Positions 13,117-47,410 of a DNA stretch of 64,000 nt are shown here, piece by piece (the stretch's first letter is position 1; each line of letters starts with the position of its first letter). The stretch is from an uncultured Candidatus Micrarchaeota archaeon (GTDB taxonomy: Archaea > Micrarchaeota > Micrarchaeia > CAILAH01). A program made the position numbers and the translations under genes. Where the stretch lies: NCBI GenBank assembly GCA_903832205.1, contig CAILAH010000038.1:4456-68455 (forward strand), written 5' to 3'. The notes beneath the pieces are model-generated. The model was given only the letters and a program-made list of their open reading frames with translations, made no database searches and was not told where the DNA came from.

Positions 13117-13561
13117 ATTTCTCCCTCAGTATCTTTTCCATAATTGCGTTCACATTCTCAAGCGAATTGCAAAGGTAATCCAATTCATAATCGCTAAGCC
13201 CGGAAATGTTTTTGCGGATTGCTTCCCGGACATTGCGCTTCAGCTGCTTTGTGAAGGCCCTGCCTTTCGGCGTTATCTCAATCATAACGACCCTGTGGTC
13301 CTTCTGGCCCTGCATGTGCCTGACCTTGCCTTCACGCATAAGCTTGCCGACGATTGCAGTCATATTCGGCTTTGAGCGCTGCAGCTGATAGCTCAGCTCG
13401 GTCATGGTCCTTGGCTTGCGCATGAGCATCCAAAGCACCCAGTATTGCGGGTGCAGCGGTGGCGGTTTCATCCCCTGGCTGCCCTTGCATCCCATGAGGC
13501 GGAATACCCTTACCAGTGAGATGAGCCCCTCCGCCACACGCTCGTGTTTAGTCTTTTTCAT
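13103..13561 (-). CDS. MarR-family transcriptional regulator
   Basis: 152 aa wHTH protein. MarR-like recognition helix region PRTMTELSYQLQRSKPNMTAIVGKLMREGKV. First gene of the marR-emrA-emrB operon. Confidence 0.7.
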   Translation of the reverse strand: MKKTKHERVAEGLISLVRVFRLMGCKGSQGMKPPPLHPQYWVLWMLMRKPRTMTELSYQLQRSKPNMTAIVGKLMREGKVRHMQGQKDHRVVMIEITPKGRAFTKQLKRNVREAIRKNISGLSDYELDYLCNSLENVNAIMEKILREKYGGA

Positions 13562-20929: not shown

Positions 20930-21049
20930 TGCGGCTGCCGAGATTTGAACTCGGGTCTCAGGCTTGCCTCGATTTCTTAGTGCAGGTTCCTTGCTGCGCA
21001 AAGAAAGTGCTTGGAAGGCCAGTGTCCTACCAGGCTAGACTACAGCCGC
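20930..21049 (-). tRNA. tRNA-Gly(UCC) with one intron at about 37/38 (47 nt; about 20965-21011)
   Basis: Hand-folded. Exon 1 GCGGCUGUAGUCUAGCCUGGUAGGACACUGGCCUUCCA. Exon 2 AGCCUGAGACCCGAGUUCAAAUCUCGGCAGCCGCA. One A·U mismatch in the anticodon stem. Spliced length 73 nt. Confidence 0.6.
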
Positions 21050-21102
21050 CTGTGATTTGTTTAATCTATAAAGTATTAAAAAATAGAATTAGGGGGTTAG
21101 GT

Positions 21103-21153
21103 GTAGACCACACGAGGGAAGGGGGTCTCCCCCTTCCATCAGTGAATGGGGCT
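21103..21153. repeat. Conserved 52-nt structured element (copy 1) directly abutting the tRNA-Pro 3' end
   Basis: GGGGGTTAGGTGTAGACCACACGAGG-GAAGGGGG-TCT-CCCCCTTC-CATCAGTG. Second copy at 47343-47395 with compensatory hairpin changes. Confidence 0.6.
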
Positions 21154-21285
21154 GCCCAGATTTGAACTGGGGTCTCGAAGTTTTTCATACCAACCCTCTC
21201 GAGAGGGGATTGGGTCTTATGGGAAGGGGACACTTCCCCTACCCATACCCGAACCTCGAAGCATACCAGGCTAGCCCACAGCCCC
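21147..21285 (-). tRNA. tRNA-Pro(CGG) with one 66-nt intron at 37/38 (about 21182-21247)
   Basis: Exon 1 GGGGCUGUGGGCUAGCCUGGUAUGCUUCGAGGUUCGGG. Exon 2 ACUUCGAGACCCCAGUUCAAAUCUGGGCAGCCCCA. Acceptor, T-arm and anticodon stem (with one G·U) all pair. Spliced length 73 nt. Confidence 0.65.
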
Positions 21286-22626
21286 ATATTTCTCCACGTC
21301 TTTGAAGATATCTTTACTTTTAGAAATCATAGTTTTTAAATAGTTTGACCGCCTGGCAATCTCATCATAAATCCTGCTCTCGCCCCAGCCGTTGGCGAAC
21401 GCAATCTCCTCGATGACGCGGGACTTGGCGGGCGTGCGAACGACCGTGTCCTTCTTGGGGTCATACTGGTAGATGTGCCTTATCATAATGGCGCCCTTGT
21501 TCTCAACGAGCTCGCACACCTCAAACACCTTTCTCGTCTCCTGCACCTTGCCGCCGCTGATGAATTTCAGGAATCTCCTCTGCACAATCACCAAATCAAT
21601 GGCGTTAATGTCCGAGGGCATCACGTCATTGTAGCGCAGGCGGGAGACGAGCTCCTTGGCGCTGTGCGCGTGCATGGTCGCGTAGCAGCCGCGCGCCTGT
21701 CCCGCGTTCATGCTCTCTATCATCGCGAGTATCTCCTCCTTTGAGCGCACCTCGCCGATAATCACGCGGTCAGGCCGCATGCGCAGGCTGTCCTCAATCA
21801 AATCCTTCATTTCAATCCCCAGGGGCGGATTGGTCTTCATCTTCACCTGGTGCCTGTGCGGGATAACGATCTCAGGTGTCTCCTCAAGCATTATTACGCG
21901 CTCGCTTGACGGCACAAAAGAAAATAGCGCATTGAGCGTGGTGGTTTTTCCCGCCGCGGTATTGCCGCAGATGATAACGTTCTTGTCATTCTGGAAAACC
22001 GTCCAGAGGAAAGCGAGCAATTCGTAATTATATCCCGTCTTGATGAGCTCGCGCAACGTGAGCGGTGATTTCTTGAATTTTCTTATTGTGAGCTCAAGGT
22101 CAGAAACAGGCTCAATGGTGGCGTGAAGCCGGGAGCCGTCAGGCAGCACCGCATTAAGGCGCGGATTCTGCAAAGTGATGCGCCTCCCAATCGTCCTTGA
22201 CATCTTGTTGATGACATCTATGAGCGCATTCCTGTCGGTGAACATCACGTTCGTGTCCAGCCATCCCTTCTCCCGATGAAAAACGAATATGGGATTGTCA
22301 AGGCCGATGACTGCAATCTCCTCCAGCATGTCATCCTCCAGCAAATAGGTGATGGGCCCGAATGCATAGGTCGCAAGATAGGCGGCATCAGCGAGGTAGC
22401 GCACCTGGTCATCATCGGCCTTTATGCCGTTCTTCCTGAGATTCTGCACCAAAAGCTTGTTGACAACCTGCATGGCGATGGTGCCGTTCTCAATCACTTC
22501 GTCCTTGACGGTATCGCTGAACTCCTTGCACACATCCTCTATTACCTGGAGCTCGTCAGGGCTAAGCTTCTGCACGCGCACCTTGTATTGGCCGCCGTCA
22601 AGGACTCTCCATCCCACCCAGCCCAT
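21271..22626 (-). CDS. Type IV pilus/archaellum assembly ATPase (FlaI/PilB/VirB11 superfamily)
   Basis: Walker A GNTAAGKTTTLNALFSF, Walker B/Asp box VIMLEETPEI, His box region. 451 aa. Confidence 0.75.
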   Translation of the reverse strand: MGWVGWRVLDGGQYKVRVQKLSPDELQVIEDVCKEFSDTVKDEVIENGTIAMQVVNKLLVQNLRKNGIKADDDQVRYLADAAYLATYAFGPITYLLEDDMLEEIAVIGLDNPIFVFHREKGWLDTNVMFTDRNALIDVINKMSRTIGRRITLQNPRLNAVLPDGSRLHATIEPVSDLELTIRKFKKSPLTLRELIKTGYNYELLAFLWTVFQNDKNVIICGNTAAGKTTTLNALFSFVPSSERVIMLEETPEIVIPHRHQVKMKTNPPLGIEMKDLIEDSLRMRPDRVIIGEVRSKEEILAMIESMNAGQARGCYATMHAHSAKELVSRLRYNDVMPSDINAIDLVIVQRRFLKFISGGKVQETRKVFEVCELVENKGAIMIRHIYQYDPKKDTVVRTPAKSRVIEEIAFANGWGESRIYDEIARRSNYLKTMISKSKDIFKDVEKYGAVG

Positions 22627-29301: not shown

Positions 29302-30528
29302 ATGGCAGAATCCTCAGTTACCATTGTAAATTCCGGCACTGGCCTTACACAGCGCCAGATCAGCCAGGAGATTATATCCAGACTTAAGATGATGGTTAGC
29401 GAGGCAAAGAAGCTGCTCAGGCAGAATAACATACGCGGCGCGGAGAGAAGGGTACACGATGCGCTTAACCTTGACCCGAACAATCCACAGGCCACATCGT
29501 TATTGATTAAGCTTTATTCGGGCACAGGCCGCGCATTCAAGGCCAGGAAGCTGTATGAGAGCGCAATTGAGCGCGGCATCGCATCAGGGCATTCGCCCGT
29601 CCCTATTTATGAGGCGTACCTGCGTGCGAACAAATCCACCCTCGCCCACGAGCTGCATCTGTTTTCAATTGAGAAAGGCGTGGCCCCGGCCGATGCCAAC
29701 TCTGCGCTCATTGCGGCATATTGCAAGTGCGGCCTTGTTGAGGAGGCACGTTCCATATTTGACACTGCATTGCAGGCAAAAGAGGTCAACCACTTCGCAT
29801 TCCTTTCCTTGATTCTGGGCTATAGCAGAAAGGATATGCCCGCCACTGTCATTAAGATATACGGGCTTGCAGAAGCCAATAACATGTGCAATGATGACAT
29901 AAACGATGCGATGATAATCACATTCGCAAAGGTGAACGACGCAGAATCCGCAGTCAGGCTGTTCAGCGGGTCACACAGGGGAATCATCCGCTCCCATGAG
30001 ACATTCGCCTCATTAATGCAGATGTATGCAAGATTGGGTAACGTGCCCAAGGCACGCGAGATATTTGACCTGTCAGTTGAGAAGGGATATGCGGATAACG
30101 TGACTTACGGCATCATGATTGACATCTACTGCACCGGAAAAGATACTGGGAATGTAAAAGGGCTGCAGCAAAAAGCGCTTGGCGCAAACCAGCTTGATAA
30201 GAGGGCCTACGCGTCGCTCATCCACTATTACTGCTCAATCGGCGATATTGATGAGGCGCGCAAGCTCTTTGATGACGGAGCACCGAGAAGGAAGGTTGAC
30301 AGCATGGACTGCACCACGCTTATGCACGTCTACCACGTCAAGTGGGAAATAGTAAATGCAAGGGAAGTGTATGAAATCGCAATCAAGAATGGCTTCTGCG
30401 ACTCCCGCTGCCATGACTATATGTATAATATCTATGAGATGCGGGGAGACCACAAGTCGGCAAAGGAAGTCTATGAGCAGTGGCTCAGGATTATGATAGA
30501 ACGGAGAAATTCCAGGCCCCATCCCTAG
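29302..30528 (+). CDS. PPR/TPR-like helical-repeat protein (about 10 degenerate 35-aa repeats)
   Basis: Repeated units ALIAAYCKCGLVEEARSIFDTA, TFASLMQMYARLGNVPKAREIFDL, YASLIHYYCSIGDIDEARKLFDDG and YGIMIDIYCTGKD are strikingly PPR-like. Confidence 0.6.
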   Translation: MAESSVTIVNSGTGLTQRQISQEIISRLKMMVSEAKKLLRQNNIRGAERRVHDALNLDPNNPQATSLLIKLYSGTGRAFKARKLYESAIERGIASGHSPVPIYEAYLRANKSTLAHELHLFSIEKGVAPADANSALIAAYCKCGLVEEARSIFDTALQAKEVNHFAFLSLILGYSRKDMPATVIKIYGLAEANNMCNDDINDAMIITFAKVNDAESAVRLFSGSHRGIIRSHETFASLMQMYARLGNVPKAREIFDLSVEKGYADNVTYGIMIDIYCTGKDTGNVKGLQQKALGANQLDKRAYASLIHYYCSIGDIDEARKLFDDGAPRRKVDSMDCTTLMHVYHVKWEIVNAREVYEIAIKNGFCDSRCHDYMYNIYEMRGDHKSAKEVYEQWLRIMIERRNSRPHP

Positions 30529-30808: not shown

Positions 30809-31081
30809 TGGACCCGCGCGGGATTGAACCGCGGATTTCTCGCGAAAGGGGATCTGCCGCCCCCACACATTTGCGAAAGCAAATGGTGGCGCTTTTTGGC
30901 ATGCGCCAAAACTGCGCTTCAACCCCAGGCTTGGGGCGCAGCCCCAAACCCCTGATTGAAAAGGCAGAAATCTTTCCCCAAACCCAATTTATACCCTGAG
31001 GGGGGATTGGGTCTTATGGGAAGGGGGCACTCCCCCTACCCATATGTGAGGCGAGCGTCTTAACCACTCGACTACGGGTCC
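30809..31081 (-). tRNA. tRNA-Val(CAC) with an unusually long (about 200 nt) intron at 37/38; exons 31081-31045 and 30844-30809
   Basis: Exon 1 GGACCCGUAGUCGAGUGGUUAAGACGCUCGCCUCACA. Exon 2 CGCGAGAAAUCCGCGGUUCAAUCCCGCGCGGGUCCA. Spliced length 73 nt. The intron 5' part is homologous to the tRNA-Pro intron. Confidence 0.6.
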
Positions 31082-45647: not shown

Positions 45648-47036
45648 ATGGCGGCCAAGCATTTCTCCAAGGAAGTCTGGAACAGGATGCGCACACAGAT
45701 ACTCAAGGAGGTAAGGCCGTCGCCCGAATCGCACGCGGAGGTGCGCAAGGTCGCGGATGAGCTTGTTGAGAAACTGAACAAAATTTCCCCAACTGAAATT
45801 GACGTGATGCTTACCGGCTCTTTTGCCAAGGACACCTACGTCCGCTCGGATGTTGATTTTGACATATTCATTTTATTCCCCGAGAAATTCACACTCTACG
45901 ATTTGCAGACCATGACGTTTGAGTGGGCCAAGAAGTTCCTTGAGAACTGGGAGGTCGCCTATGCGCAGCATCCCTATCTCCGTGGCTATTACAAGGGGCA
46001 TCATGTTGATGTGGTTCCCAGCTATAGGATAAGGGAGGGCGAGCCCGTCAGGATTAAGAGTGCGGTGGACAGGACGCAGCTGCACACAAAGTACGTCCTC
46101 TCGGTAATCACGGATGCGCAGAGGGATGACGTGCGCATACTCAAGAAGTTCATGAAGCGGTTGGGAATTTACGGCGCGGAGATAAGGACAGGAGGATTTT
46201 CAGGCTACCTCTGCGAATTGCTCATAATAAAGTACGGCTCGTTCTACGATCTCATAATGGCTGCGCGCAACTGGAAGTTCCCGGTTGCGGTTGATGTGAC
46301 GGGCGGCAGGAGCGAGCGGCTTCTGCACGCGCTGTTCAAGGAGGACACATTCGTGATCACGGACCCGGTTGACAAGAAGAGAAACGTCGCATCGCCTGTA
46401 AGTTCTGATTCATTGTCAAAATTCGTCGCTGCGGCGCACGTGTTTTTCCTGAACCCGAACGCGGCAATGTTTTTCACTGAGATTGAATTGCTCGGCATGA
46501 AAGAGATACGCAAGCAGGTTGCCGAGCGCGGCACATCGTTCGTGCTGTTCGAATTCCCAAAGCCCAAGAAGGCGGATGACATTTTGTGGGGCGAGATTCG
46601 CAAGACGCTTGGCTGCATTGAATGTTCTTTTGACAAGGAGGAATTCAACTGCACGCACCAGACCGCAGAGGTGCACGAGGGCAAGTGCTACATGCTTTTC
46701 GAGCTTGTGCACGATACCCTTCCCGCAGTGACGCTGCAGGCAGGGCCCTACGTGCGCATGGGGCCGCATCTTGAGAAATTCATCCAGGAGGAAATGAACA
46801 ACGTTGATTTGTTCGTGAAGGACGAGCGCATGTGGGCAGTTAGAAAGAGAAAATACAGCAGCGTGCTCCAGCTTGTTGAGGACATACGGAAGAACCCGCT
46901 CTGCCATGGTGTGAGCAAGGGCATAATGAAGGAGATTTCAACGGCGAACATCTACACGAGTGATGATTCTATTTTTGAGGACAGCCGGAAGGTGTACACG
47001 ATGCATCTCAACAGGAAATTCTTCCTGGGGCTTTGA
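45648..47036 (+). CDS. cca: CCA-adding enzyme (class I archaeal tRNA nucleotidyltransferase)
   Basis: GSFAKDTYVRSDVDFDIFILF (Pol-β nucleotidyltransferase motif) and GGFSGYLCELLII head-domain motif. 462 aa. Confidence 0.85.
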   Translation: MAAKHFSKEVWNRMRTQILKEVRPSPESHAEVRKVADELVEKLNKISPTEIDVMLTGSFAKDTYVRSDVDFDIFILFPEKFTLYDLQTMTFEWAKKFLENWEVAYAQHPYLRGYYKGHHVDVVPSYRIREGEPVRIKSAVDRTQLHTKYVLSVITDAQRDDVRILKKFMKRLGIYGAEIRTGGFSGYLCELLIIKYGSFYDLIMAARNWKFPVAVDVTGGRSERLLHALFKEDTFVITDPVDKKRNVASPVSSDSLSKFVAAAHVFFLNPNAAMFFTEIELLGMKEIRKQVAERGTSFVLFEFPKPKKADDILWGEIRKTLGCIECSFDKEEFNCTHQTAEVHEGKCYMLFELVHDTLPAVTLQAGPYVRMGPHLEKFIQEEMNNVDLFVKDERMWAVRKRKYSSVLQLVEDIRKNPLCHGVSKGIMKEISTANIYTSDDSIFEDSRKVYTMHLNRKFFLGL

Positions 47037-47065: not shown

Positions 47066-47284
47066 ATCCTCGTAGGGGCCAGTTGCTTAGTCCGGTGGAG
47101 CGCCCGACTGATATCGGTCAAAGTGACCGGTTTAGCCCATTCTTTATGGGATGGAAATCGGGAGGCCGGGAGTTCAAACAGCTTTTCTTTTGCGAAAGAA
47201 ACGTGCGTTTTCCTTGAGGGAAAACAACGCGTCATTCGCGTAAGCGAATGAACGACCTGGGAAAAGAAAAGCCTTGAAAATCTC
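47066..47284 (+). tRNA. tRNA-Ile(GAU) with two introns; exons 47066-47103, 47147-47168, 47271-47284; intron 1 at 37/38 (43 nt); intron 2 in the T-loop at 59/60 (102 nt)
   Basis: Acceptor GGGCCAG/CUGGCCC plus A. D-arm GCUU…GAGC. Anticodon stem CCCGA/UCGGG with loop CUGAUA(A). T-arm GGGAG-UUCAAA|U-CUCCC. Spliced length 74 nt. Confidence 0.65.
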
Positions 47285-47342
47285 CCCTGGCCCATTATGG
47301 GACTTTCTCGAAAGAGAAACGTGCTACACTCTTCTCGCGTGA

Positions 47343-47395
47343 GGGGGTAGGTGTAGACCACACGAGGGAGGGGGAACCTTCCCCCTCCATCAGTG
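47343..47395. repeat. Conserved 52-nt structured element (copy 2), followed by an 11-nt direct repeat of the tRNA-Ile 3' end (CCCTGGCCCAT at 47275-47285 and 47396-47406)
   Basis: GGGGGTAGGTGTAGACCACACGAGG-GAGGGGGAA-CC-TTCCCCCTC-CATCAGTG. The hairpin arms differ from copy 1 by compensatory substitutions. Confidence 0.6.
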
Positions 47396-47410
47396 CCCTG
47401 GCCCATACCC

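Follow-up and report, generated by a model that had tools for sequence, protein, structure and literature searches.

The 52-nt unit that occurs twice in the 64-kb stretch of DNA analysed here (the window) is probably the conserved 5′ module of a family of short (~55-100 nt), non-coding and non-autonomous mobile elements, or mini-introns, of thermophilic Micrarchaeia, and its copies in the window would be ectopic insertions. Judging from the comparison of orthologous sites, both of these copies appear to be recent insertions next to tRNA 3′ ends. Among several options, an earlier note on this DNA had proposed a miniature non-autonomous mobile element, which is supported by the filled and empty sites and by the short, non-coding units described below. 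It had also noticed a likeness to an intron hairpin, and the family has indeed turned out to be primarily an intron module.

On the minus strand, the two window copies show the same architecture, in which the invariant blocks CACTGATGG and CCTCGTGTGGTCTACACC enclose a covarying GC-rich stem. The core that they share, the 19-mer AGGTGTAGACCACACGAGG, is found exactly twice in the 64-kb window, where 0 occurrences would be expected; the conserved blocks previously described in both copies are real. Copy 1 is a 54-nt insertion at 21091-21144 of the minus strand (start 21091/21092; 78.2 bits with the covariance model); although the copy itself had been recognised correctly, it lies ~9-10 nt further left than the 21103-21153 first assigned to it. 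It starts 2 nt past the discriminator base of tRNA-Pro and lies between the 3′ end of this gene and a T-run, in the same orientation as the tRNA. Its minus-strand sequence, CACTGATGG-(GGAAGGGGG AGA CCCCCTTCC)-CTCGTGTGGTCTACACCTAACCCCCT, is that of a short family member without 3′ hairpins. Copy 2 is a complete 100-nt unit at 47296-47395 of the minus strand, inverse to tRNA-Ile (78.1 bits). Its conserved 5′ module corresponds to 47395-47343 in minus-strand reading, precisely where the earlier note had placed it, and is followed by a second hairpin, closed by CTACAC/GTGTAG, and a third one (TTTCTC/GAGAAA); the distance from the end of tRNA-Ile to the module is 48 nt rather than the 58 nt originally given.

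Copy 2 is bounded by an exact 11-nt repeat, CCCTGGCCCAT. The right copy of this repeat, at 47396-47406 of the plus strand, had been located correctly and is followed by ACCCTATTATAAAT, in the SecF promoter region, while the left copy has to be moved from 47275-47285 to 47285-47295 of the plus strand, where it covers positions 64-73 of tRNA-Ile plus 1 nt. The 11-mer is not a frequent word, which would have deprived the repeat of its meaning, as it has exactly these two occurrences in the window against 0.06 expected. Additionally, the plus strand of both copies has the reading GGTGTAG...CATCAGTG, from which it follows that copy 1 is co-oriented with tRNA-Pro (read as CACTGATGG...) and copy 2 is inverted with respect to tRNA-Ile; this opposite orientation relative to the neighbouring tRNA is absent from the earlier note. 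Both copies are located outside the mature tRNAs and, thus, do not interrupt a conserved tRNA or rRNA gene as an intron does, so that they are relatives of introns and not introns themselves.

The tRNA genes that surround these copies are easily overlooked. ARAGORN reports 0 tRNA genes in the window because those present are split by introns, and Rfam recovers only tRNA-Gly at its gathering threshold; manual parsing combined with Rfam identified at least four (Pro, Gly, Val and Ile), each with one or two introns. tRNA-Pro(CGG) occupies 21147-21285 of the minus strand (exons 21285-21248 and 21181-21147; manual parse, partial Rfam tRNA match and orthologues in loci L017-L019) and contains a 66-nt intron at position 37/38 (21247-21182, minus strand) that belongs to a second shared intron family, designated family B. 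A T6 run at 21078-21083 of the minus strand is likely to be the terminator of its transcription unit, and the next gene downstream on this strand is tRNA-Gly(UCC) (20930-21049), which has a 49-nt intron at 37/38 and is matched by Rfam RF00005 with 54.5 bits. tRNA-Ile(GAU) is found at 47076-47294 of the plus strand (exons 47076-47113, 47157-47178 and 47281-47294; manual parse, partial Rfam match and orthologues in L011-L014), with plus-strand introns at 47114-47156 (37/38) and 47179-47280 (T-loop, 59/60).

Some other characteristics of these genes and their surroundings were observed. The fourth tRNA gene, tRNA-Val(CAC), is intron-split and lies at 30960-31080 of the minus strand; its intron (AUGGGUAGGGGGAGUGCCCCCUUCCCAUAAGACCCAAUCCCC...) is nearly identical to that of tRNA-Pro(CGG) at 21182-21247, and it is from this near-identity that family B is recognised as a second intron family common to unrelated tRNAs. 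Units related to family B are also found as tandems, both in L013/L014 (T-loop intron of tRNA-Ile(GAU), ~13140-13310) and in L002. The T-loop of tRNA-Pro (21147-21181) is uninterrupted in the window, whereas all three orthologues (L017, L018 and L019) have a 59/60 intron there, which makes this intron a presence/absence polymorphism among genomes with 81-85% protein identity. At 21271-21285, a secretion-ATPase ORF shares its 3′ end, including the TAG stop, with the first 15 nt of tRNA-Pro, which is encoded on the same strand. An ORF for a PPR/TPR-like helical-repeat protein of 408 aa (29302-30528, plus strand; Pfam PPR, E = 8e-24), a type of protein that is unusual in archaea, lies ~0.5 kb away from tRNA-Val. 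Finally, two sub-threshold box C/D-like Rfam matches with a UGAUGA box were obtained just upstream of tRNA-Pro (21307-21373, minus strand, 21.7 bits) and of tRNA-Ile (46959-47032, plus strand, 17.2 bits); both are within the 3′ ends of the preceding ORFs and are probably due to chance.

Evidence of insertion comes from orthologous loci that lack the element in three to four related Micrarchaeia genomes. The genes on either side of the copies were used to locate syntenic loci in these relatives, whose proteins are 80-85% identical. Three lineages, represented by L011, L012 and L013/L014, have an empty site at tRNA-Ile(GAU), where the 3′ end of the tRNA passes directly into the region upstream of SecF. 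The junction reads ...CCCCTGGCCCAT followed by ACCTATTATAAAT in L013/L014, ...CCCAT followed by TATTCAGC in L012 and ...CCCAT followed by TGCTTTATTC in L011, while the filled site of the window reads ...CCCCTGGCCCAT, then 100 nt, then CCCTGGCCCAT and ACCCTATTATAAAT. Comparison of these empty sites with the filled one identifies copy 2 as a 100-nt insertion accompanied by an 11-bp target duplication and, consequently, supports the proposal that it is an insertion with a duplicated tRNA-Ile 3′ end. For tRNA-Pro, the cleanest case is the empty trailer of L019, in which the tRNA leads straight into the T-run (...GGGCAGCCCCAT followed by ACTTCTGTTTTTTAATACTTTAT); relative to it, the window has 54 extra nt between tRNA-Pro and the same T-run, without any duplication. 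In L017 and L018, the site of copy 1 carries unrelated insertions. Downstream of tRNA-Ile(UAU), the site is filled in L001 and empty in L002.

Besides the two window copies, those of L001 (tRNA-Ile(UAU)), L005 (tRNA-Asn) and L010 are found at tRNA 3′ flanks. Three copies, namely copy 2 of the window, L001 and L005, are inverted with respect to the tRNA and bear direct repeats flush with their CAC end. The repeat has 11 nt in copy 2, 21 nt in L001, where it extends 11 nt past the tRNA into the locus-specific flank, and 13 exact nt (~20 with 2 mismatches) in L005. For junctions placed at random in the window, the probability of a flush repeat is 1.3e-4 for a length of at least 11 nt and below 2.5e-5 for a length of at least 13 nt. 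By contrast, no flush repeat was detected at the sense-oriented copies (five loci, copy 1 included), and L008 has an offset near-repeat (GCAGCCATCAC versus GCAGCATCAC). The length of the duplications is therefore variable (0, 11, 21 and ~20 nt), and they are seen only at inverted copies.

The tRNA-Asn 3′ flank of L005, from a metagenome-assembled genome (MAG) of DRTY-6, deserves a separate description. Between 4300 and 4720, the tRNA-Asn 3′ end (ATCCTGTCTCGGGCG, with variants) occurs as an array of nested duplicates. Three kinds of sequence separate them: a recurrent 40-nt unit (TTGCCCTCCACAACTCTCGCAAATTCTACGCATTTGCTCG), the element itself, and an insert of 34 nt that has 32-nt repeats on its flanks. 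This locus resembles a hotspot of recurrent insertion and duplication events.

Altogether, the family comprises 10 full copies at 9 independent loci of 5 genomes or metagenomes, all of them from Micrarchaeia and all at tRNA or rRNA genes. A scan of prokaryotes for the exact core, with one genome per species, gave 6 further copies, all from Candidatus Micrarchaeia (a sulfidic-cave MAG and the hot-spring MAG DRTY-6 bin 182), and a two-block scan of metagenomes added the true loci L008 and L010; as these public scans used exact core patterns, diverged relatives would escape them. Three other matches of the metagenome scan were discarded as chance matches, since they do not have the hairpin. The covariance model was run on ~250 kb, made up of the window and 15 loci of related genomes, and found no full copy beyond the ten; together with nhmmer it detected no diverged full copies and only hairpin-only resemblances. 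The scan of viral contigs and the BLAST searches of phages and plasmids returned no match to the element, and Rfam contained no family for it at either the gathering or a permissive (E<=10) threshold. The earlier note had suggested a wider search to see whether every copy is next to a tRNA 3′ end; all ten copies are at tRNA or rRNA genes, but the location at tRNA 3′ flanks is true of only some of them, as others are within introns of tRNA and 23S rRNA genes.

In its own sense, the module consists of CACUGAUGG, a GC stem that varies in sequence but is always paired, and CCUCGUGUGGUCUACACC, usually followed by 1-2 variable hairpins. Although 26 nt are invariant across the 5 genomes, the sequence of the GC-rich stem differs between copies, and the paired substitutions previously noticed in the two window copies hold for the family: in an alignment of 9 copies from 5 genomes or metagenomes, which was fitted to the covariance model and is thus biased towards the structure, 99.2% of the cells are paired and 5 pairs have changed on both sides, while the six outermost pairs do not vary and are thus uninformative about covariation. 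The covariation score was reached by 0 of 500 shuffles, and sliding the partner columns destroys the signal. The four independent cases in which the complete unit could be delimited measure 100, 93, 90 and 95 nt, a constancy that fits a discrete element and speaks against remnants of random deletion. The units lack terminal inverted repeats, their 3′ ends are not conserved, and no copy is positionally conserved between genomes.

Further variation was seen within the family. Some copies have inserts of 50-60 nt with extra small hairpins in the apical stem (L002, 2173-2300; L004, 1029-1131; L010, 6546-6660), and the module also occurs as head-to-tail tandems and partial duplicates. Additionally, the series CCUCGUG-UG-GUCU-A has an apparent resemblance to the 5′ region of tRNAs (acceptor strand, positions 8-9 and D-stem).

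The relationship of the family to introns is seen in DRTY-6, in which the module is located, in the sense of the host gene, directly at the 5′ edge of the intervening sequence of three genes: tRNA-Leu(UAA) (L003, ...CUUAAG↓G-CACUGAUGG), tRNA-Arg(GCG) (L004, two tandem copies) and tRNA-Ile(UAU), where it is in the T-loop intron, also in tandem (L002, ...UUCAAA↓G-CACUGAUGG). In a fourth case, L008, the module abuts the 23S rRNA sequence GGCUUAGAAGCAGCCAU. The archaeal LSU model, which matches with 803 bits, places a 97-nt insertion here, and the exons restore the consensus GAAGCaGCcAuCCucUAAgg; the intervening sequence, of ~95 nt, belongs to the GTPase-associated centre. Exons that restore the mature sequence surround the intervening sequence in L002, L003, L004 and L008, and in all these tRNA and 23S rRNA sequences the 5′ end of the module is 0-1 nt from the 5′ splice site. 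Moreover, similar introns in distinct tRNA genes are considered transposed when they are >70% similar, and the introns of tRNA-Leu, tRNA-Arg and tRNA-Ile share the 26-nt identity.

Splicing of the intervening sequences that carry the element would be expected from this gene structure. Splice motifs of canonical geometry, drawn by hand, have helices h CAGGA/UCCUG and H CUUA/UAAG with bulges AG↓G and AA↓A in L003, and h GGGAG/CUCCC and H UUCA/UGAA with bulges AA↓G and AA↓U in L002. In both, the CAC of the module is 1 nt past the 5′ cut, at the usual start of the outer helix h′. For L004 and L008, drawing by hand gave no clean motif of the canonical bulge-helix-bulge type, and minimum free energy folds of the whole precursors gave no reliable splice motif and did not recover the canonical h-B-H-B arrangement. 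The missing motif in L004 and L008 does not settle the matter, since relaxed motifs and 59/60 introns are also cleaved by the epsilon-2 endonuclease of this lineage (PMC3239211).

A mobilising enzyme was sought around the copies. No integrase, transposase or reverse transcriptase was identified among 20 ORFs of the window, including stretches without a counterpart in the annotated loci of relatives, nor among 10 ORFs adjoining copies in other loci, nor in an extra ORF of DRTY-6 beside tRNA-Ile. Similarly, 6 copy-bearing loci in other genomes have no integrase beside the element, as judged from scanned ORFs in 4 of them and from synteny in the other 2; TnpA and TnpB were not detected in the loci examined, and the search yielded no autonomous copy. 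Several of the ORFs tested have no assignable function, and the genes adjacent to the copies are housekeeping ones, such as those for the CCA-adding enzyme, SecF/SecD, an archaeal secretion ATPase, an aminotransferase, Sua5 and glutamine synthetase, among others. The extra ORF of the DRTY-6 genomes encodes ~490 aa with only a faint ankyrin match (L013, 11450-12913; L014, 11450-12943); it is situated between the gene for the CCA-adding enzyme and tRNA-Ile(GAU) and is absent from the window, L011 and L012.

These results bear on other explanations of the 52-nt unit. The earlier note had compared the geometry of copy 2 with attL/attR sites, and it could be supposed that a tyrosine or serine integrase joined an attP derived from a tRNA segment with the tRNA gene, that the module is a recombinase-binding arm next to attR, and that the rest was deleted later. 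The repeats of copy 2, L001 and L005 do span the region from the T-arm to the tRNA 3′ end, like many integrase att sites, the nested tRNA-Asn duplications of L005 would suit a repeatedly used attB, and an integration model for intron gain has already been proposed (PMC3293823). Such a scar is nevertheless an unlikely origin. The 8 loci that were checked have no integrase beside them, nor do the tested ORFs of the window include a recombinase; units of a constant 90-100 nt in four independent cases are not what random deletion would leave; and a single module is combined with repeats from different targets (Ile and Asn), which vary in length (11, 21 and ~20 nt). Furthermore, the repeat of L001 reaches 11 nt into locus-specific flank, as a target duplication would and a pre-existing attP would not, the five sense-oriented loci are without flush repeats, and collections of viruses and plasmids contain no match. 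The family therefore does not match integrase-mediated integrative elements. An IS200/IS605 derivative of the PATE or REP type, depending on its hairpin and on single-stranded DNA and mobilised by an HUH (Y1) transposase encoded elsewhere in the genome, seems very improbable, although the element is small and non-autonomous and its variable, paired stem between conserved flanks recalls the subterminal hairpins bound by such transposases. Insertion of this kind makes no target duplication, yet three copies have duplications of 11-21 nt; a conserved target of 4-5 nt is missing in front of the CAC end, the units are not conserved at their 3′ ends, and neither TnpA nor TnpB was found in the loci examined. 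The class of MITEs was also rejected, as the units resemble them only in small size and lack of coding capacity, having no terminal inverted repeats and duplications of 0, 11, 21 or ~20 nt.

It could also be considered that the element is a structured RNA with a host function, either a small RNA or a processing or stability signal that RNase Z or the splicing endonuclease would cut out of tRNA and rRNA precursors, and that its spread is secondary. Box C/D guides freed from the archaeal tRNA-Trp intron would be a parallel. In fact, the perfect conservation of 26 nt in 5 genomes could alternatively reflect a host function, the stem covaries, the 5′ end of the sense copies coincides with an RNase Z or endonuclease cut site, and an invariant U-G pair, together with G-U pairs in L008 and L003, suits an RNA strand in host sense. 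Even so, a host RNA has a low probability, since the orthologous sites are empty in relatives with 80-85% protein identity, positional conservation is lacking and three copies are antisense to the host tRNA. Nor does it resemble a known class: Rfam gives no match even at E<=10, and inspection of the sequence reveals a C-box-like CUGAUGG but no D box (CUGA), no tandem G-A pairs and no k-turn geometry, so that box C/D sRNAs and k-turns were discarded, as were H/ACA and hammerhead readings, whose defining boxes or geometry are missing on inspection. The more specific option that the unit is a processing structure of the tRNA 3′ trailer, also raised in the earlier note, does not hold, because the orthologous trailers of close relatives lack the unit and because it is found in either orientation and within introns as well. 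The lack of positional conservation between genomes fits a selfish element better than an RNA with a host function.

The simplest account of these observations would be a non-autonomous mobile family that normally resides in endonuclease-spliced introns. A sense copy within a tRNA gene (at 37/38 or at 59/60 in the T-loop) or within a 23S rRNA gene would form part of an archaeal intron of the bulge-helix-bulge type. Its long hairpin would start 0-1 nt after the 5′ cleavage site, the normal place of the outer helix h′ of the splicing motif, and this position suggests that it can be removed by the broad-specificity epsilon-2 splicing endonuclease of the host; the hairpin may have a role in defining the splice site. 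Such a copy would be tolerated because it is spliced out, while copies outside the mature RNA may be tolerated in either orientation. Copy 1 would have entered the trailer of tRNA-Pro ahead of the terminator and, being upstream of the T-run, should be co-transcribed as a 3′ trailer and presumably removed by RNase Z. Copy 2 would have entered the last 11 bp of tRNA-Ile in reverse, duplicating them and leaving an intact gene upstream. A copy that lands in the last bases of a tRNA would survive only if the duplicated target keeps the gene intact, which could explain why long duplications are found just at inverted copies.

Regarding the mechanism of movement, insertions in reverse orientation with duplicated target DNA point to a step of insertion at the DNA level and are hard to reconcile with RNA-level reverse splicing alone. 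Insertion may occur in either orientation at staggered breaks, by means of a trans-acting enzyme or of a DNA copy of the excised intron, and the invariant flanks may be the part recognised by the mobilising or the splicing machinery. The fact that the units start exactly at what would be the first nucleotide of the excised intron, while their 3′ ends vary, agrees both with an origin from a DNA copy of the excised intron and with the action of a nuclease recognising the end of the hairpin. Several observations count against the mobile mini-intron: the search gave neither a mobilising enzyme nor an autonomous copy, the duplications have variable lengths that no classical transposase produces and accompany only inverted copies, the units have neither terminal inverted repeats nor conserved 3′ ends, L004 and L008 yielded no clean splice motif, and the 26 invariant nt may reflect a host function. 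The sample from which it was deduced consists of 10 copies.

Several known systems share some of these features. In Thermoproteales, similar introns in unrelated tRNA genes have been taken as evidence of intron transposition, as summarised in a 2014 review (Fujishima et al. 2010, Mol Biol Evol 27:2233; via PMC4090602), and the same review considers the mechanism of archaeal intron transposition unknown and presumes it to act at the DNA level. As in that group, introns would have been gained late, by transposition, in a lineage with a broad-specificity splicing endonuclease. However, the present family belongs to another phylum (Micrarchaeia, DPANN), has an invariant 5′ module with a covarying stem as its defining feature, and is also found in a 23S rRNA intervening sequence and at extragenic tRNA 3′ ends, in both orientations. 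Filled and empty orthologous sites and flush duplications of 11-21 nt are available here, while the review (PMC4090602) reports no such features for Thermoproteales; the family thus extends the tRNA intron transposition known from that group, to which it adds these two kinds of evidence. ARMAN-2/Ca. Micrarchaeum, of the same lineage, has many non-canonical introns, including some at 59/60, and its epsilon-2 endonuclease cleaves relaxed motifs (PMC3239211, PMC3488258). The elements described here share the 37/38 and 59/60 positions and the relaxed motifs cut by epsilon-2 with these introns, and this relaxed cleavage explains the tolerance of such insertions. The parts of these papers that were consulted mention neither a repeated conserved intron module nor extragenic copies, and our literature search found no account of the module, of its occurrence in introns of both tRNA and 23S rRNA genes or of copies outside genes that are accompanied by target duplications.

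Integrative elements of archaea and eukaryotic introners provide further comparisons. Elements of the SSV and pNOB8 types, which target archaeal tRNA genes, are kilobases long and encode a recombinase. Like them, the insert in the window is flanked by a duplicated 3′ segment of a tRNA, and unlike them, the units have 55-100 nt, no recombinase was found and the repeats derive from the target and vary in length. A link between integration and intron gain has been suggested in Caldiarchaeum, where the integration of a recombinase-bearing element was proposed as a route of intron gain (PMC3293823). As regards eukaryotes, the comparison is one of analogy. Introners of algae and fungi are reported to be non-autonomous DNA elements that create introns, since the splicing machinery of the host removes them, and that leave target duplications (Huff et al., Nature 2016; Gozashti et al., PNAS 2022); they are removed by the spliceosome and have terminal inverted repeats and short duplications of fixed length. 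The present family would likewise combine a non-autonomous element, an intron removed by host splicing and target duplications, but with a protein endonuclease instead of the spliceosome, no terminal inverted repeats and duplications of variable length.

At a practical level, standard tRNA finders miss all of the at least four tRNA genes of the window, and the elements inflate the apparently intergenic space around them. More generally, the family bears on how archaeal tRNA introns reach new genes and new positions, and it offers material for studying this process: an invariant module with a covarying stem, sites in tRNA introns, rRNA introns and extragenic DNA, both orientations, bounded filled and empty alleles, and flush duplications. 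We tentatively suggest that it may be the first tractable archaeal introner, that is, a non-autonomous DNA element giving rise, in tRNA and rRNA genes, to introns that are spliced by an endonuclease; its hairpin would mark the 5′ splice site and serve as a handle for a mobilisation machinery that inserts it either way at staggered breaks. If this were true, the mechanism of archaeal intron transposition would become directly testable.
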